From a virus (Duplodnaviria; Heunggongvirae; Uroviricota; Caudoviricetes), in IMG/VR virus record IMGVR_UViG_2869976549_000001: a stretch of 39,073 nucleotides of DNA; one strand, given 5' to 3'. Below the pieces are notes generated by a model. It was not told the origin of the DNA. It did no database searches and saw only the letters and a list, made by a program, of their open reading frames with translations. Position 1 is the first letter of the stretch. The number at the start of each line of letters is the position of its first letter. Both the position numbers and the translations under genes were made by a program. Positions 339-28,414 of this stretch are shown here, one piece after another.

Positions 339-1157
339 ATGTGTCAGGTATTTGGTGTATCCAGGAGCGGTTATTACAACTGGGTACAGCATGAACCCTC
401 AGACAGAAAACAAAGTGATGAGCGGCTAAAACTGGAGATTAAGGTGGCACATATCCGCACTCGCGAAACATATGGAACCCGGCGGCTCCAGACGGAGCTG
501 GCAGAGAATGGCATCATCGTTGGTCGTGACCGACTGGCACGTCTTCGTAAGGAGCTAAGGCTACGCTGTAAGCAGAAACGCAAGTTCAGAGCGACTACGA
601 ACTCGAACCACAATCTGCCAGTTGCGCCAAATCTGCTGAACCAGACGTTCGCTCCTACAGCACCAAATCAGGTCTGGGTGGCGGACCTGACGTATGTTGC
701 CACACAGGAGGGATGGTTGTACCTCGCTGGCATCAAAGATGTTTATACGTGCGAAATTGTCGGCTACGCCATGGGAGAGCGCATGACAAAAGAGCTGACA
801 GGTAAAGCCCTGTTTATGGCGCTCAGGAGCCAGCGCCCACCTGCCGGGCTAATCCACCACTCTGATCGAGGTTCACAGTACTGCGCATACGATTACCGGG
901 TCATACAGGAGCAGTCTGGTCTGAAAACATCAATGTCGCGTAAAGGTAACTGTTACGACAACGCTCCGATGGAAAGCTTCTGGGGAACGCTGAAAAATGA
1001 GAGCCTGAGCCACTATCGTTTTAATAACCGGGATGAAGCCATCTCAGTAATACGGGAATACATTGAGATTTTCTACAATCGTCAGCGTCGTCACTCTCGT
1101 CTGGGGAATATCTCCCCGGCAGCCTTCAGGGAAAAATATCATCAGATGGCTGCTTAA
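339..1157 (+). CDS. IS600 transposase OrfB (DDE catalytic part)
   Basis: 272-aa ORF in the -1 frame relative to orfA; IS3-family integrase-core motifs (HSDRGSQY, NAPMESFWG). Confidence 0.85.
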   Translation: MCQVFGVSRSGYYNWVQHEPSDRKQSDERLKLEIKVAHIRTRETYGTRRLQTELAENGIIVGRDRLARLRKELRLRCKQKRKFRATTNSNHNLPVAPNLLNQTFAPTAPNQVWVADLTYVATQEGWLYLAGIKDVYTCEIVGYAMGERMTKELTGKALFMALRSQRPPAGLIHHSDRGSQYCAYDYRVIQEQSGLKTSMSRKGNCYDNAPMESFWGTLKNESLSHYRFNNRDEAISVIREYIEIFYNRQRRHSRLGNISPAAFREKYHQMAA

Positions 1158-1200
1158 AAAAAGAACAAATGGTAGTGTCCGCTATTGCCAGTACACCTCA

Positions 1201-1549
1201 ATTGCTCTGCGGCTTCGCTCAGAGCTGGCGTATGTTCCCGGCCTACTGATTCACACAGGTAATCAACGAAACCGGACACCAGTTTTCGTTCGCGAGGCGT
1301 GATCGCCCCACCGACCGGAGTCCAGTAATCGAAACCCAGTTGCAGGAGTTTGAAAAAACGCTTGTGGAATGCGTAGTTACACACACGCTTAAAGTCTGCG
1401 TGTATCCACTCACCTATTTTGATTTGATGCAGAAAATCGCAACTCTCCGGCGTCGCCGGGAGAAGTAATCCGGAAGAGGTTTGTTTGACCAGTTGTATAT
1501 GTGCCATCGGCTTTCTCCGGTGGCACGGTGTTACACAGCAGGAGTTCAA
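1201..1549 (-). pseudogene. Hypothetical prophage protein, 3' end truncated by IS600 copy 1
   Basis: Minus-strand ORF 1154..1549 runs from unique DNA into the IS600 right end, so its last residues are IS-encoded; start overlaps the upstream ORF stop (ATGA coupling at 1546-1549). Confidence 0.35.
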
Positions 1550-1833: not shown

Positions 1834-2082
1834 CTTCAGAATCCTTCCAGATAAATAGCTCTCCCCTGTTCGGGGTCCATCCCTCTTCTCCCTGCGCGCT
1901 ACTTAAGTGAGTCGATTCTATCTGCGAAGGTGCGCGAATCAAATTCACCGGAAATAAACAACAAAAAACCCGCCGAAACGCTGAGAGATCACAGCGATGG
2001 GCGGGTTAAGTGCGGGTGCGTTGAGGATGCCTGACACATCAGAGGTGGGCGGGGATGGGATCAGCTCCCCGCCCGGTCACTC

Positions 2083-2238
2083 TTACTTCCTGGATTCGTA
2101 GTCTACGAAGACAGCGACCTCCGTCTGGCCGGTTCGGATTCGTACCTCACAGAGGTCTTTCCTCGTTACCAGTGCCGTCACTATGACGGTTAAACAGATG
2201 ACGATCAGGGCGATTAACATCGCCTTTTGCTGCTTCAT
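2083..2238 (-). CDS. hok: Hok/Gef-family membrane toxin (type I toxin; HokD/RelF-like)
   Basis: 51-aa product MKQQKAMLIALIVICLTVIVTALVTRKDLCEVRIRTGQTEVAVFVDYESRK: single TM helix plus the conserved LCE(V/I)RI...EVAAF-type Hok core. The listed ORF (2083..2295) is a 5' extension, possibly the overlapping mok-like frame. Confidence 0.75.
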   Translation of the reverse strand: MKQQKAMLIALIVICLTVIVTALVTRKDLCEVRIRTGQTEVAVFVDYESRK

Positions 2239-2465
2239 AGCCTGCTTCTCCTTGCCTTTCGGCATGTAAGAGGCTAACCTACATGTGCAAAGCATGAAAT
2301 TGGCCTCAGATTAATGTTAAGCGTCTTGCCGGACGCGTAATGTTAACTGGGGCTTTTCTCTATCTGCCTTTTGGTGTTCATGCCTGAAGCAGATAGCCTC
2401 AAGCACCCGCAGTCATTCTACTTACCTCGCCAATATGAAATCAATCAGAAAGGTGCCCCATAAAA

Positions 2466-3152
2466 TCACTCCTTCTCTTCTTTACCGTAGTGGAGTTGAC
2501 CAATTTTGATAAGAGGGCGTCCCTGAGATTTGCGGTGTAGATTGGTATCGCGCAGAGAATACACACAGCCACAATATTCCTGCTGATAGAATTTTTCGCG
2601 CTTGCTGATTTCAATCATACGGGACGAGCCGCCCTGCTTGCGCCAGTTATAATCCCAGTACACCATGCCCGGATAATGCGCGACGGCTCGCCGCCCACAG
2701 TCGTTAACCTGCTGCATATTTTTCCAGCGTGAAATGCCCAGTGAACTGCTGATCACACTGAAACCATTTTCAGCGGCGTACAGCGCTGTCCGCTCAAAAC
2801 GCATGTCAAAACACATGGTGCAACGGATCCCTCGTTCGGGCTCCCATTCCATTCCTTTGGCTCGTTCAAACCAGTTGTCTGTGTCGTAATCAGCATCAAT
2901 AAACGGCACGCCGTGTTGTTCAGCAAAGCGAATATTCTCATCCTTACGAATTAAATACTCTTTCTGAGGATGAATGTTCGGGTTGTAGAAAAAGATGGTG
3001 TAGTCGATTCCCGAGGCCTGAAGCGCCTCCATCACCTCACCGGAACATGGAGCACAGCAAGAGTGCAGTAGTAGTTTGTTTGCCCCGTTTGGGAGCTCCA
3101 ATTTGGGCCGTTTGAAATCAGCAACTGTCATAAATATGTTTATTGGGGTCAT
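2466..3152 (-). CDS. queH: DUF208 / QueH-like epoxyqueuosine-reductase-family Fe-S protein
   Basis: [11 protein letters not shown] motif near the N-terminus plus downstream RCxxCF and YCGC cysteine motifs typical of QueH. Start codon uncertain (alternative Met at about 3131). Confidence 0.55.
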
Positions 3153-3299
3153 AAAAATATCAAAGAGTGTAGCATTAGAACGGGGCTATCGGAAACAGAT
3201 GTGTGACTGCTCCCCGCCCTTTCGGGTGGTCTCCTGATGATTTGAGGGTGCAGAAATCCCTCCGGTTAAGGATTAAATTTTTAACAGTGCTAAATTTAA

Positions 3300-3713
3300 T
3301 TATTCAGTTCTGGATTTTGTCGCCCTGCGTATCCGCGCTTTCGCGTTACGCTCAATCTGTATCAGCTTTTCTATATTTCTCCGCCTTTCCTGTTCCTCCT
3401 GGCGCAATAGCCTTACATCATCTGCCAGTCTGGTTTCTCTTTTTGCCACAGAGAGCATCCAGTCAAACGGCTCCACAACCGCACCGCAGATTTTACAGCG
3501 GACCTGACGCTCTTTTTCGTCAACCCGTACAGAGGCGTGATGGCAATATGGTCTTTCCGATGGCTCATAAAGAAAATTAACCTGATTACGAGGGTCATCC
3601 TCTTTTACCGGAAATAAAACGATATTGCTTAACTCATCTTCTGGTTTTATTTCCATGCTCCTCTCCTTTGATGCGAATGCCAGCGGTAATTGAAGCCTGA
3701 TAGCTAATTTCAT
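3300..3713 (-). CDS. Hypothetical prophage protein with C-x16-C-x2-C cysteine cluster and basic coiled C-terminus
   Basis: 137-aa ORF abutting the upstream gene stop; possible alternative start at about 3656. Confidence 0.35.
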   Translation of the reverse strand: MKLAIRLQLPLAFASKERSMEIKPEDELSNIVLFPVKEDDPRNQVNFLYEPSERPYCHHASVRVDEKERQVRCKICGAVVEPFDWMLSVAKRETRLADDVRLLRQEEQERRRNIEKLIQIERNAKARIRRATKSRTE

Positions 3714-4136
3714 TCACAGTATCGCCTCCTGAAAATTACCCTGATAGAAAGCCAGTACACGCTGCATAGCTTCGCTCTTCCGGCACTCGCGACAGATTAT
3801 ATTCAGGCGCCTGTCGTAGCGGCGTATTTCTCCGTCAGGTAATGACCAGATAAGGTCCGGATCAACAACAACCGGTTTCCTCACCTTTACTCTCGAGAGT
3901 TTTTTGCGGGCGCTTTGCCAGTCCTTGCGAGCCTGTTCAGACGGGAATAAGCCGTAGCCAGAATTATATACATCACCACTTGCGACCAGTTCTATGCATA
4001 AGCGACCGACAGACGCACGACTGATACCTGTTTCATCTGACAACTGCCGAATCGTGACCCGACCGTCCTGATGCACGAGTTCCACAATTCGCGTCTTCAG
4101 TTCTTCCCGCTGTTCGGGAGTAAAAGGTTTCGCCAT
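3714..4136 (-). CDS. Hypothetical prophage protein (140 aa), in the position of Rac YdaW
   Basis: ORF immediately downstream of the DnaC-like gene, same strand, 14-bp gap. Confidence 0.4.
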   Translation of the reverse strand: MAKPFTPEQREELKTRIVELVHQDGRVTIRQLSDETGISRASVGRLCIELVASGDVYNSGYGLFPSEQARKDWQSARKKLSRVKVRKPVVVDPDLIWSLPDGEIRRYDRRLNIICRECRKSEAMQRVLAFYQGNFQEAIL

Positions 4137-4150
4137 AAATCCTCCTGAAA

Positions 4151-4897
4151 CTACTTAACAACCCTCGAATGGCTAACATTCGGACGCCAGCTCTCCCAGT
4201 TAAAATTCACCCAGCGCCCGCCGTTCATGACCATGCGATCCATCACCCGCTCGCCGAGCAATGTTTTCATCACCTCATAGTTCAGGTTTGTCAGCATCCC
4301 CACGCTGCGCATCGACGCTGTCCGGCGATCAACAATCTGGTGCAGCACCACCTGCTCGTTTTTCGTCTCGCGCTGAATGCCAATTTCATCAAGAACCAGC
4401 AGATCCACTTCGCACAGCTCCCGCAAAAATTTTTCGCCTGACTGCCCGTCGTCATAGCTGGCGTGCAGGGCGCTCATAACATCAGCCACGGTAACCACAA
4501 TCACTGTCTGACCGTCTTTCAGCAGGCGATTCCCGATAGCTGCCGCTAAGTGATTCTTCCCGGTACCAGGTTTTCCGCTGAACGCAAAATTTGTACACCC
4601 GGTCATCAGTTCATCGGCGATGGATTTCGCCTGGCTTAACGCGTATCGCTGGCCGTCGTTCTGCACCTGGTAATTCGCAAACGAGCATTTACGGTGCAAC
4701 GGCTGGATGCCTGAGCGATTCAGAATTTTTTCCACCCGCAACTGGCGATTCAGGCGGTTGATCTCCTCGCTACGTTTCTGGCCTTCAGCAAGTTGCCACT
4801 CGCGCCACTCCGCTACCGTTCTGAATGGGGCGGTTACATGTGGCGGGGTCAGTCGGCGGATGCGTTCCAGAACGCCGCCTGTCGCAATATTTTTCAT
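4151..4897 (-). CDS. ydaV: DnaC-like replication ATPase / helicase loader (YdaV-like)
   Basis: 248 aa; Walker A GKPGTGKNHLAAAIG and Walker B DLLVLDEIG, IstB/DnaC family; sits 6 bp after the initiator stop. Confidence 0.8.
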   Translation of the reverse strand: MKNIATGGVLERIRRLTPPHVTAPFRTVAEWREWQLAEGQKRSEEINRLNRQLRVEKILNRSGIQPLHRKCSFANYQVQNDGQRYALSQAKSIADELMTGCTNFAFSGKPGTGKNHLAAAIGNRLLKDGQTVIVVTVADVMSALHASYDDGQSGEKFLRELCEVDLLVLDEIGIQRETKNEQVVLHQIVDRRTASMRSVGMLTNLNYEVMKTLLGERVMDRMVMNGGRWVNFNWESWRPNVSHSRVVK

Positions 4898-5251
4898 GGT
4901 CCGTTACCCCCTGAAGCCTGGCGGGATCGCACTGTCCGGCAACGAGACGGTGTTAACCTGTCGGAGCAACGTCTCAGGCCGAACACCTTTCGGCGCGAAC
5001 AGGCCCTGGTATTCATTGGCGATGCTGTGTCGAATCACCTGCTCAGGTGTAAAACCCTGCTGACGGAATTTTTCCAGTTCCCGTATCGCCCCGTTAGCGC
5101 CCTGCTCCGTTCGAATCGGTTTTCGCAATGCCTGTCTGAACCGGACCCACTCATGCCAGAGTGTTTCCGGCAACCAATCGGGCAGCTCAATAGCCTCCGG
5201 CTCGAATTTTTTAGACGCTCGTTTTTGGCGAGGGGGAGATCAGTATTTAGA

Positions 5252-5581: not shown

Positions 5582-6487
5582 CTATATTTCCAGACATCTG
5601 TTATCACTTAACCCATTACAAGCCCGCTGCCGCAGATATTCCCGTGGCGAGCGATAACCCAGCGCACTATGCGGATGCCATTCGTTATAATGCTCGAACG
5701 CCTCTGCAAGGTTCTTTGCTGCCGTTAACCCGTCTGGTTTGGGCATGATACTGATGTAGTCACGCTTTATCGTTTTCACGAAGCTCTCTGCTATTCCGTT
5801 ACTCTCCGGACTCCGCACCGCCGTGTTCTTCGGTTCAAGTCCCAACATCCGGGCGAACTGGCGTGTTTCATTAGCCCGGTAGCATGAACCATTATCCGTC
5901 AGCCACTCCACTGGAGACGACGGAAGATCGTTGCCGAAGCGGCGTTCCACCGCTCCCAGCATGACGTCCTGTACTGTTTCACTGTTGAAGCCGCCGGTAG
6001 TCACCGCCCAGTGCAGTGCCTCACGATCACAGCAGTCCAGCGCGAACGTGACACGCAGTCTCTCTCCGTTATCACAGCAGAACTCGAACCCGTCAGAGCA
6101 CCATCGCTGATTGCTTTCTTTCACGGCCACTCTGCCTGTATGTGCCCGTTTCGATGGCGGTACAGCAGGTTTTCGCTCAAGCAACAGCGCATTCTGGCGC
6201 ATGATCCGGTAAACACGTTTGGCATTGATCGCAGGCATACCATCAAGTTCTGCCTGTCTGCGAAGCAGCGCCCATACCCGACGATAACCATACGTGGGCA
6301 GCTCTCCGATAACATGGTGTATACGGAGAAGCACATCCGTATCATCAGTGTGACGACTGCGGCGGCCATCCATCCAGTCATCGGTTCGTCTGAGAATGAC
6401 GTGCAACTGCGCACGCGACCCCCGGAGACAACGGCTGACTAAGCTTACTCCCCATCCCCGGGCAATAAGGGCGCGTGCGCTATCCAC
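5582..6487 (-). CDS. insD: IS2 transposase InsD (OrfB)
   Basis: 301-aa ORF, DDE integrase-core motifs; identical to the copy at 14057..14962. Confidence 0.9.
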
Positions 6488-6810
6488 TTTTTTGCCCGTC
6501 CATATTCAACGGCTTCTTTGAGGAGTTCATTTTCCATCGTTTTCTTGCCGAGCAGGCGCTGGAGTTCTTTAATCTGCTTCATGGCGGCAGCAAGTTCAGA
6601 GGCAGGAACAACCTGTTCTCCGGCGGCGACAGCAGTAAGACTTCCTTCCTGGTATTGCTTACGCCAGAGAAATAACTGGCTGGCTGCTACACCATGTTGC
6701 CGGGCAACGAGGGAGACCGTCATCCCCGGTTCAAAGCTCTGCTGAACAATTGCGATCTTTTCCTGTGTGGTACGCCGTCTGCGTTTCTCCGGCCCTAAGA
6801 CATCAATCAT
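6445..6810 (-). CDS. insC: IS2 InsC (OrfA, HTH)
   Basis: 121-aa product from Met [13 protein letters not shown]...; the listed ORF has a 15-aa 5' extension. Confidence 0.85.
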
Positions 6811-6901
6811 CTGTACTCCAATGACTAGTCTAAAAACTAGTATTAAGACTATCACTTATTTAAGTGATACTGGTTGTCTGGAGATTCAGGGGGCCAGTCT
6901 A

Positions 6902-7010: not shown

Positions 7011-7313
7011 ATGAGCAGAAAAACCCAACGTTACTCTAAAGAGTTCAAAGCCGAAGCTGTCAGAACGGTTCCTGAAAATCAACTTTCGATCAGTGAAGGC
7101 GCTTCCCGATTATCTCTTCCTGAAGGCACTTTAGGACAATGGGTTACCGCCGCCAGAAAAGGGCTCGGTACTCCTGGTTCCCGCACGGTGGCTGAACTGG
7201 AATCTGAAATTCTGCAACTGCGTAAGGCGTTAAATGAAGCTCGCCTTGAGCGAGATATATTAAAAAAAGCAACAGCGTATTTTGCACAGGAGTCGCTGAA
7301 AAATACGCGTTAA
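7011..7313 (+). CDS. IS600 transposase OrfA
   Basis: Identical to 1..303. Confidence 0.9.
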   Translation: MSRKTQRYSKEFKAEAVRTVPENQLSISEGASRLSLPEGTLGQWVTAARKGLGTPGSRTVAELESEILQLRKALNEARLERDILKKATAYFAQESLKNTR

Positions 7314-7348
7314 TCGAACAATGGCGACAACAATTTCCCATTGAAGCG

Positions 7349-8167
7349 ATGTGTCAGGTATTTGGTGTATCCAGGAGCGGTTATTACAACTGGGTACAGC
7401 ATGAACCCTCAGACAGAAAACAAAGTGATGAGCGGCTAAAACTGGAGATTAAGGTGGCACATATCCGCACTCGCGAAACATATGGAACCCGGCGGCTCCA
7501 GACGGAGCTGGCAGAGAATGGCATCATCGTTGGTCGTGACCGACTGGCACGTCTTCGTAAGGAGCTAAGGCTACGCTGTAAGCAGAAACGCAAGTTCAGA
7601 GCGACTACGAACTCGAACCACAATCTGCCAGTTGCGCCAAATCTGCTGAACCAGACGTTCGCTCCTACAGCACCAAATCAGGTCTGGGTGGCGGACCTGA
7701 CGTATGTTGCCACACAGGAGGGATGGTTGTACCTCGCTGGCATCAAAGATGTTTATACGTGCGAAATTGTCGGCTACGCCATGGGAGAGCGCATGACAAA
7801 AGAGCTGACAGGTAAAGCCCTGTTTATGGCGCTCAGGAGCCAGCGCCCACCTGCCGGGCTAATCCACCACTCTGATCGAGGTTCACAGTACTGCGCATAC
7901 GATTACCGGGTCATACAGGAGCAGTCTGGTCTGAAAACATCAATGTCGCGTAAAGGTAACTGTTACGACAACGCTCCGATGGAAAGCTTCTGGGGAACGC
8001 TGAAAAATGAGAGCCTGAGCCACTATCGTTTTAATAACCGGGATGAAGCCATCTCAGTAATACGGGAATACATTGAGATTTTCTACAATCGTCAGCGTCG
8101 TCACTCTCGTCTGGGGAATATCTCCCCGGCAGCCTTCAGGGAAAAATATCATCAGATGGCTGCTTAA
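7349..8167 (+). CDS. IS600 transposase OrfB
   Basis: Identical to 339..1157. Confidence 0.9.
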   Translation: MCQVFGVSRSGYYNWVQHEPSDRKQSDERLKLEIKVAHIRTRETYGTRRLQTELAENGIIVGRDRLARLRKELRLRCKQKRKFRATTNSNHNLPVAPNLLNQTFAPTAPNQVWVADLTYVATQEGWLYLAGIKDVYTCEIVGYAMGERMTKELTGKALFMALRSQRPPAGLIHHSDRGSQYCAYDYRVIQEQSGLKTSMSRKGNCYDNAPMESFWGTLKNESLSHYRFNNRDEAISVIREYIEIFYNRQRRHSRLGNISPAAFREKYHQMAA

Positions 8168-19453: not shown

Positions 19454-20605
19454 ATAGCTGCGCGGAATAGTAGATCACTTTGAGGGAACTTAGCCCGGAT
19501 TGTGCGATCTGATCAATCGCCAAATCAAAACAAATCACCAACCGGACTGAGCAATGCCGATCATAGCACCAATTTCCCGTGACGAACGACGCCTGATGCA
19601 GAAAGCCATCCATAAAACACACGATAAAAATTATGCCCGCAGACTGACTGCCATGCTGATGCTGCACCGGGGCGACCGTGTCAGCGACGTTGCCAGAACG
19701 CTCTGCTGCGCCCGTTCCTCTGTTGGACGCTGGATTAACTGGTTCACGCAGTCGGGTGTTGAGGGACTGAAATCATTACCTGCCGGGCGTGCCCGTCGCT
19801 GGCCGTTTGAGCATATCTGCACACTGTTACGTGAGCTGGTAAAACATTCTCCCGGCGACTTTGGCTACCAGCGTTCACGCTGGAGTACAGAACTGCTGGC
19901 AATAAAAATCAATGAGATAACCGGTTGCCAGTTAAATGCCGGAACCGTTCGCCGCTGGTTGCCGTCTGCGGGGATTGTGTGGCGAAGGGCTGCGCCAACT
20001 CTGCGTATCCGTGACCCGCATAAAGATGAAAAGATGGCAGCAATCCATAAAGCACTGGACGAATGCAGCGCAGAGCATCCGGTCTTTTATGAAGATGAAG
20101 TGGATATCCATCTTAATCCCAAAATCGGTGCGGACTGGCAACTGCGCGGACAGCAAAAACGGGTGGTCACGCCGGGACAGAATGAAAAATATTATCTGGC
20201 CGGAGCGCTGCACAGCGGGACAGGTAAAGTCAGCTGTGTGGGCGGCAACAGCAAAAGTTCGGCGCTGTTCATCAGCCTGCTGAAGCGGCTTAAAGCGACA
20301 TACCGTCGGGCGAAAACCATCACGCTGATCGTGGACAACTACATTATCCACAAAAGCCGGGAAACACAGAGCTGGCTGAAGGAGAACCCGAAGTTCAGGG
20401 TCATTTATCAGCCGGTTTACTCGCCATGGGTGAATCATGTTGAACGGCTATGGCAGGCACTTCACGACACAATAACGCGTAATCATCAGTGCAGCTCAAT
20501 GTGGCAACTGTTGAAAAAAGTTCGCCATTTTATGGAAACCGTCAGCCCATTCCCCGGAGGCAAACATGGGCTGGCAAAAGTGTAGCGGTATTAAGCGCAG
20601 CTATT
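19453..20605 (+). mobile_element. IS630, 1153 bp, with TA target duplication inside a CTAG site
   Basis: Terminal inverted repeats AAATAGCTGCGC at 19453 and rc at 20605; TA at 19451-19452 and 20606-20607; pre-insertion target reads CCTAGA. Confidence 0.88.
19554..20585 (+). CDS. IS630 transposase
   Basis: 343-aa ORF, Tc1/IS630-family DDE transposase. Confidence 0.88.
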   Translation: MPIIAPISRDERRLMQKAIHKTHDKNYARRLTAMLMLHRGDRVSDVARTLCCARSSVGRWINWFTQSGVEGLKSLPAGRARRWPFEHICTLLRELVKHSPGDFGYQRSRWSTELLAIKINEITGCQLNAGTVRRWLPSAGIVWRRAAPTLRIRDPHKDEKMAAIHKALDECSAEHPVFYEDEVDIHLNPKIGADWQLRGQQKRVVTPGQNEKYYLAGALHSGTGKVSCVGGNSKSSALFISLLKRLKATYRRAKTITLIVDNYIIHKSRETQSWLKENPKFRVIYQPVYSPWVNHVERLWQALHDTITRNHQCSSMWQLLKKVRHFMETVSPFPGGKHGLAKV

Positions 20606-24336: not shown

Positions 24337-24612
24337 GTGGCTTCTGTTTCTATCAGCTGTCCCTCCTGTTCAGCTACTGACGGGGTGGTGCGTAACGGCA
24401 AAAGCACTGCAGGACATCAGCGCTATCTCTGCTCTCACTGCCGTAAAACATGGCAACTGCAGTTCACTTACACCGCTTCTTAACCCGGTACGCACCAGAA
24501 AATCATTGATATGGCCATGAATGGCGTTGGATGCCGGGCAACTGCACGCATTATGGGCGTTGGCCTCAACACGATTTTACGTCACTTAAAAAACTCAGGC
24601 CGCAGTCGGTAA
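24337..24612 (+). pseudogene. insA: IS1 insA with in-frame TAA at codon 49
   Basis: GTG start, [22 protein letters not shown]... then GCT TCT TAA (24481-24483) where a sense codon is expected; frame otherwise intact to the normal stop. Confidence 0.7.
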
Positions 24613-25034
24613 CCTCGCGCATACAGCCGGGCAGTGACGTCATCGTCTGCGCGGAAATGGACGAACAGTGGGGCTATGTCGGGGCTAAATCGCGCCAGCG
24701 CTGGCTGTTTTACGCGTATGACAGTCTCCGGAAGACGGTTGTTGCGCACGTATTCGGTGAACGCACTATGGCGACGCTGGGGCGTCTTATGAGCCTGCTG
24801 TCACCCTTTGACGTGGTGATATGGATGACGGATGGCTGGCCGCTGTATGAATCCCGCCTGAAGGGAAAGCTGCACGTAATCAGCAAGCGATATACGCAGC
24901 GAATTGAGCGGCATAACCTGAATCTGAGGCAGCACCTGGCACGGCTGGGACGGAAGTCGCTGTCGTTCTCAAAATCGGTGGAGCTGCATGACAAAGTCAT
25001 CGGGCATTATCTGAACATAAAACACTATCAATAA
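24531..25034 (+). CDS. insB: IS1 InsB frame (167 aa)
   Basis: Full-length InsB-frame ORF; A-run frameshift window upstream. Confidence 0.8.
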
Positions 25035-27646: not shown

Positions 27647-28414
27647 GGTAATGACTCCAACTTATTGATAGTGTTTTATGTTCAGATAATGCCCGATGGC
27701 TTTGTCATGCAGCTCCACCGATTTTGAGAACGACAGCGACTTCCGTCCCAGCCGTGCCAGGTGCTGCCTCAGATTCAGGTTATGCCGCTCAATTCGCTGC
27801 GTATATCGCTTGCTGATTACGTGCAGCTTTCCCTTCAGGCGGGATTCATACAGCGGCCAGCCATCCGTCATCCATATCACCACGTCAAAGGGTGACAGCA
27901 GGCTCATAAGACGCCCCAGCGTCGCCATAGTGCGTTCACCGAATACGTGCGCAACAACCGTCTTCCGGAGACTGTCATACGCGTAAAACAGCCAGCGCTG
28001 GCGCGATTTAGCCCCGACATAGCCCCACTGTTCGTCCATTTCCGCGCAGACGATGACGTCACTGCCCGGCTGTATGCGCGAGGTTACCGACTGCGGCCTG
28101 AGTTTTTTAAGTGACGTAAAATCGTGTTGAGGCCAACGCCCATAATGCGTGCAGTTGCCCGGCATCCAACGCCATTCATGGCCATATCAATGATTTTCTG
28201 GTGCGTACCGGGTTAAGAAGCGGTGTAAGTGAACTGCAGTTGCCATGTTTTACGGCAGTGAGAGCAGAGATAGCGCTGATGTCCTGCAGTGCTTTTGCCG
28301 TTACGCACCACCCCGTCAGTAGCTGAACAGGAGGGACAGCTGATAGAAACAGAAGCCACTGGAGCACCTCAAAAACACCATCATACACTAAATCAGTAAG
28401 TTGGCAGCATCACC
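27647..28414 (-). mobile_element. IS1, copy B, 768 bp, inverted relative to copy A; no target-site duplication
   Basis: rc of IS1 termini at 27647 and 28414; flanks AATACCCTG / CAAAAAAGG differ; carries the same insA TAA (28213-28215). Confidence 0.9.
27662..28165 (-). CDS. insB: IS1 InsB frame
   Basis: 167-aa ORF, identical to copy A except one residue. Confidence 0.8.

Follow-up and report, generated by a model that had tools for sequence, protein, structure and literature searches.

Why should a lambdoid prophage carry a gene for completing queuosine (Q) in tRNA into hosts such as Escherichia coli, the genomes of which already encode an enzyme for the same reaction? The question is raised by an open reading frame (ORF) in a 39,073-nucleotide stretch of DNA, the window of this analysis (IMG/VR record IMGVR_UViG_2869976549_000001), which runs uninterrupted for 228 codons between positions 2466 and 3152 on the minus strand and is called queH here. 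From the letters alone, a first-pass annotation had proposed that it encodes a QueH/DUF208-type Fe-S enzyme, and that it is prophage cargo beside a hok toxin gene; the first proposal now finds agreement among a profile score, the pattern of cysteines and the predicted fold, and the second is borne out by the gene context. The best explanation, to which we assign a probability of roughly 0.6, is that queH is a moron captured from a chromosome, which would give lysogens a cobalamin (vitamin B12)-independent conversion of epoxyqueuosine (oQ)-tRNA to Q-tRNA.

A profile search matched the ORF to Pfam PF02677 (QueH, the former DUF208) with an E-value of 1.9e-65 and a score of 220.6 bits versus a cut-off of 23.5, residues 27-201 being aligned with positions 1-174 of the 175 in the profile; as a sequence match this is far above chance level. 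The 11-residue Cys signature of the ORF corresponds to residues 27-37, and the protein contains Cys32, Cys33 and Cys36 of a CCAPC motif, followed by Cys111 and Cys114, and by Cys194 and Cys196. When the protein was aligned with 56 diverse QueH representatives, taken from a library of 1.8 billion proteins, Cys32, Cys33, Cys36, Cys111, Cys114 and Cys196 were found to be conserved in 52-56 of the 56, and Cys194 in 48, with Arg110, also present in the window protein, invariant throughout. All seven cysteines and Arg110 are invariant in a 40-sequence alignment. Every conserved cysteine is therefore kept, as the first-pass annotation anticipated together with the strong DUF208 match. In Thermotoga maritima QueH, the cysteines of the CCxxC, CxxC and CxC motifs are said to provide the ligands of the cluster and of an adjacent metal. 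Cys36 of the window protein corresponds to Asp13 in the T. maritima enzyme and is a Cys in 54 of the 56 representatives: on this alignment Asp13 is the exception, and the Cys-bearing signature of the window protein is the norm of the family.

The nearest proteins of solved structure, as found with phmmer in the PDB (E 5e-22), are the five entries for T. maritima QueH, to which the window protein is approximately 30% identical. An AlphaFold2 model, calculated from the 40-sequence alignment, reached a mean predicted local distance difference test score (pLDDT) of 95.8 and a predicted template-modelling score (pTM) of 0.91. The five best Foldseek matches of the model are again all T. maritima QueH, with target-normalised template-modelling (TM) scores of 0.90-0.92 and root-mean-square deviations (rmsd) of 1.3-2.0 Å, the best superposition being that on 7lc5/9d86 (TM 0.92, rmsd 1.3 Å). 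The next-best folds, at E-values of approximately 1e-4, belong to other adenine-nucleotide alpha-hydrolase-like enzymes. Thus, with T. maritima QueH (PDB 7LC5; PF02677/COG1636) the window protein has in common a full-length profile match, the fold and the CC...CxxC...CxC cysteines, and the predicted reaction is alike, namely reduction of oQ34 to Q34 on tRNA without cobalamin. The two proteins differ in a basic C-terminal tail of about 25 residues, present in the window protein but not in the T. maritima one, and in their genetic setting, which is a temperate phage for the former and a chromosomal housekeeping context for the latter.

A scan of the protein against the NCBIfam models returned no match, so that the name QueH in RefSeq must stem from another rule; this null result is not counted against membership of the family because of the Pfam, PDB and fold results. 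Judged by its sequence, the ORF is a genuine and intact member of the QueH family, and a predicted enzyme. In the PHROG collection, the protein falls in phrog_3217, which is labelled 'unknown function'; the profile of this family covers only residues 41-228 and omits the CCAPC cluster motif, and its shortness probably reflects gene calls from Met41 in the source prophages.

The listed ORF of 228 residues begins with an ATG at position 3152, and the biological start is probably the second ATG (Met8, position 3131), which gives a protein of 221 residues. This start is preferred because it is the one used in the RefSeq annotation of queH, because no other ATG is kept in the chromosomal homologues (Enterobacter and Scandinavium lack the upstream one), and because 4 of the 12 amino-acid positions that vary among 20 prophage alleles lie in codons 2-6. 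The coding sequence from Met8 thus probably extends over 2466-3131 (minus strand), and it is this reading frame to which the profile match, the PDB and AlphaFold2/Foldseek results and the seven cysteines apply.

By megablast, queH is found in 995 of 5,426 complete E. coli genomes (approx. 18%), with at least 80% coverage at 90-100% identity in 985 of the 995; nearly all the copies are chromosomal, and they carry the RefSeq label 'epoxyqueuosine reductase QueH'. Proteins identical to that of the window are recorded for Shigella sonnei Ss046 (AAZ87471.1) and S. boydii Sb227 (ABB66311.1). IMG/VR holds at least 188 viral contigs with a close relative of the protein, the best 80 at no less than 99% identity, and at least 1,000 contigs of a protein collection encode the 221-residue protein. 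The first-pass description of an unusual accessory gene is thus right as far as accessory goes, but with about 18% of E. coli genomes positive and a name already given in RefSeq the gene is not rare. By contrast, queG is a core gene, present in all 5,426 genomes, so that in E. coli queH always encodes a second, non-homologous oQ reductase: QueG catalyses the same reaction on the same tRNA substrates and both genes are found in carrier strains, but QueG is unrelated in sequence to QueH and needs cobalamin. Staphylococcus aureus, Streptococcus pyogenes and S. suis also retain both QueG and QueH. That enterobacteria complete Q with QueG, as the annotation had stated, holds for E. coli but not order-wide, since chromosomal QueH occurs in many genera of the order.

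Among 50,697 phage records a single one carries queH at close identity, that of Escherichia phage HannyBb, an isolated, integrase-bearing siphovirus that has the gene at the same position as in the window, annotated as 'hypothetical protein'. Further matches among the phage records, at 31-50% identity, are unannotated contigs of unconfirmed phage origin. Two records of 328-378 kb named 'Acinetobacter phage MD-2021a' (CAKLQH020000001.1 and CAKLQF020000001.1) encode a QueH that is 78% identical, described as 'putative prophage protein'; because of their size, they are read as probably representing binned bacterial DNA rather than a phage genome.

The closest relatives outside Escherichia and Shigella are found in Enterobacter hormaechei (92% identity), in Scandinavium and Kluyvera (91%) and in other Enterobacter (86-89%), followed at 78-86% by Erwinia, Pantoea, Serratia, Rahnella, Pectobacterium, Dickeya, Proteus, Providencia, Photorhabdus and Sodalis. 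The phage neighbours seen in the window are found in none of the 78 loci outside Escherichia/Shigella. In Erwinia the gene is flanked by dcm-vsr and an HD-domain gene and, in Rahnella and Serratia, by membrane-protein genes with synteny at the family level, whereas in Enterobacter its context is variable, with LysR, GNAT, EAL and GH28 genes nearby. On the evidence of these sequences and contexts, QueH belongs to the ordinary chromosomal gene complement of much of the Enterobacterales. The proteins are near-identical, and the Enterobacteriaceae copies have the same TGCTACAYT motif upstream and the same start codon; what sets the Escherichia/Shigella clade apart is that its copies are flanked by phage replication genes and hok, whereas the chromosomal ones are flanked by ordinary genes. 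In E. hormaechei B56 (L005, 7283-7885), queH (92% identical at the amino-acid level) lies directly downstream of a 200-residue tyrosine-recombinase fragment, and its upstream boundary falls within 7 bp of that of the phage cassette, so that this locus may be the footprint of a mobile cassette outside lambdoid phages.

The limits of the cassette emerge from comparison of the prophages. Homology begins exactly at position 3202 of the window in 64 loci with unrelated upstream sequence. On the right, the common block stops at about 2001, a short way beyond hok, in 46 loci, whereas in 13 it stops at 2303, immediately ahead of the mok start. With these boundaries, common among prophages, the module formed by queH and hok/sok measures approximately 1.2 kb (2001-3202, minus strand), in which 3132-3202 is the upstream part of the queH cassette and 3202 its left mosaic boundary. 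The upstream neighbours of queH vary between loci, and in 70 of 84 it is followed by hok at a distance of no more than 700 bp. Thus queH moves as a discrete, sharply bounded cassette that is variably present among related phages.

Within the upstream part, a motif TGCTACA(C/A)T, which has the extended −10 form TGnTAnnnT, is found about 35-44 nt upstream of the Met8 ATG; in the window it is the putative element TGCTACACT at 3166-3174 (minus strand). In an upstream alignment of three prophage and five chromosomal copies (two Enterobacter species, Scandinavium, Kluyvera and Serratia marcescens), the motif stands out as a conserved island between diverged flanks, some 40-44 nt ahead of the conserved ATG; each of the three prophage copies has it, as do the four chromosomal copies from Enterobacteriaceae, but not the upstream region of Serratia marcescens. 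The equivalent position in Erwinia, Sodalis and Acerihabitans is occupied by TACACT, TAAACT or TGCTATATT. Furthermore, the chromosomal copies of E. hormaechei and Scandinavium become similar to the cassette in nucleotide sequence at a point only 7-23 bp from the phage boundary. By taking into account this common motif and boundary, the phage appears to have acquired queH together with its native, putative promoter. Base composition says nothing on a foreign origin, as the GC content of queH (approx. 0.46-0.53) shows no anomaly with respect to its neighbours.

With these elements, a sequence of events may be proposed. Most likely, queH and its putative promoter were taken together from the chromosome of a different species of Enterobacteriaceae. 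The carrier is a lambdoid prophage, reduced in the window to a remnant scrambled by insertion sequences (IS) in a Shigella sonnei-type chromosome, and the cassette comprises an upstream stretch of its own, of about 70 bp, with the putative extended −10 element, queH and then usually the hok/sok addiction locus, placed between the replication genes and the NinB/antiterminator region. The enzyme would reduce oQ to Q at position 34 of tRNA-Asp, tRNA-Asn, tRNA-His and tRNA-Tyr by means of a [4Fe-4S] cluster and an adjacent metal site, with no cobalamin, and under corrinoid scarcity the prophage copy would complete Q, so that the tRNAs would not be stalled at oQ. The substrate would be supplied by tgt, queA and preQ1 synthesis, which are core genes of E. 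coli and Shigella. De novo synthesis of B12 is beyond E. coli and, its universal QueG being cobalamin-dependent, the prophage QueH most plausibly constitutes a B12-independent route. QueH is known as the cobalamin-independent counterpart of the cobalamin-dependent QueG (PMC11906303; PMC13443448), and, according to Frey et al. 1988, as cited in PMC4646009, oQ reduction is cobamide-dependent in E. coli and Salmonella. What we infer for the gene at hand is that its product is active, that it is expressed in the lysogen and that independence of B12 is the benefit under selection.

The cassette can be compared with lambdoid morons and lysogenic-conversion genes (bor and lom of lambda, prophage-borne ipaH). 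Like them, queH is a small self-contained gene with a promoter-like element, inserted between genes of phage operons, variably present and delimited by sharp mosaic boundaries. The cargo is different, however: those genes encode surface or virulence proteins, whereas queH encodes a predicted tRNA-modification enzyme. Moreover, unlike in the typical moron, no terminator was found, and expression in the lysogen is a prediction. Indeed, a promoter and terminator scan of the sequence revealed no terminator-like site between the queH stop (2466) and a hok promoter-like site (2444), and, because it flagged neither a queH promoter nor a terminator, the argument for a promoter rests on comparative conservation.

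Several observations weigh against a role in the lysogen. The generic scan did not call the putative queH promoter because it lacks a good −35 element, nor is there a recognisable Shine-Dalgarno sequence at the queH start, so that expression may be low. Furthermore, the gene is placed in the rightward early operon, so that most of its transcription may follow induction and little may take place in the lysogen. Finally, in the literature searched no phenotype was found that separates oQ-tRNA from Q-tRNA in E. coli.

The position of queH between the replication genes and a Q-like antiterminator, oriented with the delayed-early transcript, also lends itself to another interpretation, namely that the gene would be read through in the early operon after induction or infection, and that the conversion of oQ to Q would aid translation of phage genes rich in NAU codons during the lytic cycle. 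A 2026 preprint on Shewanella is in line with it, in that phage infection was found to raise Q and lower oQ by induction of queG, which indicates that this step is regulated in infection. Codon usage is less clear: NAU makes up 70% of the Q-decoded codons in the late genes of the E. coli 042 prophage versus 53% in nine host genes, but in those of HannyBb the share is 57%, close to that of the host, so that overall (0.57 and 0.70 in the late genes of the two phages versus 0.53) the comparison is equivocal. However, the −10 motif common to non-phage, chromosomal copies argues for autonomous expression, the gene has stayed whole and under constraint even in prophages that are badly decayed and no longer inducible, that of the window among them, and one phage record alone carries it at close identity. 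By taking into account both sets of data, a role as a helper of lytic growth is considered unlikely, albeit the most serious of the alternatives to a moron acting in lysogens. It might also be supposed that queH brings no benefit at all to E. coli or Shigella, and is kept through linkage with hok/sok and mosaic exchange in the nin-like region, given that every E. coli has queG for the same function and that queH and hok usually travel as one mosaic block. In 14 loci, however, queH is present while no homologue of this hok allele could be detected in the 700 bp that follow, and in 13 a block boundary lies at 2303, just ahead of the mok start; both speak against such a dependence, and so does the record of selection. 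Of the 85 phage and prophage loci, not one has a disrupted ORF. Among 20 nucleotide alleles of the prophage clade the mean pairwise rate of synonymous substitution (dS) is 0.103 (maximum 0.31) and that of non-synonymous substitution (dN) 0.0048, with dN/dS of 0.047. In the same loci the ratio is 0.105 for the DnaC-like gene, 0.10 for the O-like remnant, 0.24 for the 137-codon ORF (orf137), 0.30 for DUF977 and 0.72 for the mok frame. Thus queH is the most constrained gene of its neighbourhood, which argues against a neutral passenger, an explanation that we hold to be improbable, and more so than a lytic function.

The first-pass annotation had also entertained phage-directed 7-deazaguanine chemistry. 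QueH would then act on a modified base of the phage DNA; a related possibility is that it would counter a host defence with QueC-like deazaguanine chemistry. Bases derived from preQ0 are known in phage DNA (PMC6884629), and QueC-family proteins occur in defence systems according to the abstract of PMC13639016. Phage clusters for 7-deazaguanine DNA modification (DpdA with FolE, QueD, QueE and QueC) draw on the same queuosine/7-deazaguanine repertoire of enzymes, but their defining genes are all absent here: neither a DpdA/TGT-like transglycosylase nor FolE, QueD, QueE or QueC, and hence no preQ0 synthesis, was found in the annotation of HannyBb and of the E. coli 042 prophage or among the Pfam-scanned ORFs of the window. 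The DNA-modification reading is rejected on account of these missing partner genes, and a defence-related variant appears hardly credible. The window protein is, moreover, 78-92% identical to QueH of the chromosomal, housekeeping type, and QueH acts once the base is already in tRNA. Epoxyqueuosine itself is known only from tRNA.

Around queH, the order on the minus strand is O-like/YdaU remnant, DnaC-like gene, DUF977, 137-residue ORF, queH, hok/mok, 95-residue ORF and DUF1367/NinB-like gene, and the arrangement given, with no strand, in the first-pass annotation (DnaC-like, two ORFs, queH, hok) is correct. At the upstream end, 4904-5173 is a C-terminal remnant of an O-like/YdaU replication initiator (phrog_6451 and phrog_678; it matches ydaU-like genes in E. 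coli loci), and 4151-4897 encodes a DnaC-like/YdaV replication ATPase (NCBIfam PRK12377, 8e-154; DnaC, 1.7e-91). There follow a DUF977/Ren-like winged helix-turn-helix (wHTH) protein at 3714-4136 (Pfam DUF977, 1.1e-33; phrog_142) and, at 3300-3713, a phage ORF to which no function is assigned, of 137 residues (118 in RefSeq), with matches to phrog_1621 (5e-56) and, weakly, to a zinc ribbon. Upstream sequence is available for 83 of the queH loci, and in 79 of these DUF977 occurs at a distance of no more than 2.5 kb, either adjacent to queH or with only the 137-residue ORF between; that ORF directly precedes queH in 15 of 85 loci.

Downstream, the hok promoter-like element (TTGATT-18-TAGAAT, 2444 to 2415, minus strand) starts 22 bp past the queH stop. 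The hok toxin gene itself (2083-2238, minus strand; 51 residues; Pfam HOK_GEF, 9.8e-23, and the NCBIfam Hok family) lies within the overlapping mok frame at 2083-2295, and RefSeq names hokD at the same site in identical loci. The hok mRNA leader/sok antisense region (2233-2408, minus strand) was recognized by Rfam RF01794 (sok) with 117 bits against a gathering score of 59; this match is on the strand of hok, begins at the predicted initiation point of the TTGATT-18-TAGAAT element and covers the hok mRNA leader. Farther on, a DUF1367/NinB-like gene (1154-1549, minus strand; Pfam DUF1367, 1.5e-46, profile positions 1-102 of 198; phrog_319) is cut by an IS3-family element at 1-1157. At Rfam gathering thresholds, neither a preQ1 nor a cobalamin riboswitch was detected near queH. 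The only Rfam matches in the window are sok and naRNA4, a nucleoid-associated RNA derived from repetitive extragenic palindromic (REP) sequences, which was found with 63 bits at 30676-30746 (plus strand), at the 3' end of ybhJ and upstream of ybhC.

As a whole, the window is a lambdoid prophage broken up by at least 10 IS copies, of the IS3-family, IS2-like, IS110-family, IS630-family and IS1 types (1-1157, 5582-6855, 7011-8167, 9947-11801, 12404-13610, 14057-15330, 19554-20585, 24531-25034, 27662-28165 and 33073-34229), with a truncated integrase at 32233-33045. The lysis, terminase, portal and head genes are at 15.4-24.3 kb, the tail-fibre genes and an IpaH-type effector at 34.2-38.0 kb, and the parts of the prophage are interleaved with the host genes pgl, ybhD, ybhJ, ybhC and ybhB, that is, the lambda attachment region. 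The effector, a 587-residue type-III protein with LRR_TTSS and NEL E3-ligase domains (36252-38015, minus strand), adjoins the tail-fibre genes (34245-36072, plus strand) on one side and ybhB (38597-39073, minus strand) on the other, and is the well-known ipaH of Shigella chromosomes, carried by a prophage remnant in the lambda attachment region. An intact relative is the Rac-like prophage at ttcA of E. coli 042, in which the order is ydaU, ydaV, DUF1627, DUF977, queH, hokD, DUF1367, DUF1364, DUF1133, tRNAs and lysis genes. The tRNA genes past the antiterminator region of the intact relatives are those for Ile, Arg, Thr and Gly in one, and for Thr and Gly in the other (L002, 11276-11586; L001, 23332-23485); none of them belongs to the Q-modified tRNAs, with a GUN anticodon.

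The family, the reaction and the name of the protein are already in public annotation, and its status as phage cargo seems to be undescribed. In full-text literature searches that combined QueH, DUF208 or epoxyqueuosine reductase with phage or prophage, no paper was found that describes queH in a prophage of E. coli or Shigella. Hutinet et al. 2019 (PMC6884629) reported no homologues of QueA, QueG or QueH in the viruses that they analysed. The cassette described here is a counter-example to that survey: approximately 18% of the complete E. coli genomes have it, as do Shigella and at least one phage that is infectious. The enzymology of QueH would be ordinary, and the interest lies in the vehicle and in the ecology. 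It may be ventured from the sequences, as a tentative and rather doubtful extension, that the moron would uncouple completion of Q from corrinoid supply in about one-fifth of E. coli and in Shigella, shifting the balance of oQ and Q and with it NAU-biased translation, with effects on biofilm formation, stress and virulence. If true, this would be the first Q-specific tRNA-maturation enzyme shown to be a lysogenic-conversion factor. In Shigella, Q-tRNA is tied to the expression of VirF through tgt/vacC. B12 limitation is a realistic condition in the gut, and probably within host cells too. If the prophage QueH is active and expressed, lysogeny would set oQ versus Q on the tRNAs of a strain under such limitation, and the coupling of B12, tRNA and translation would be testable with simple strains.

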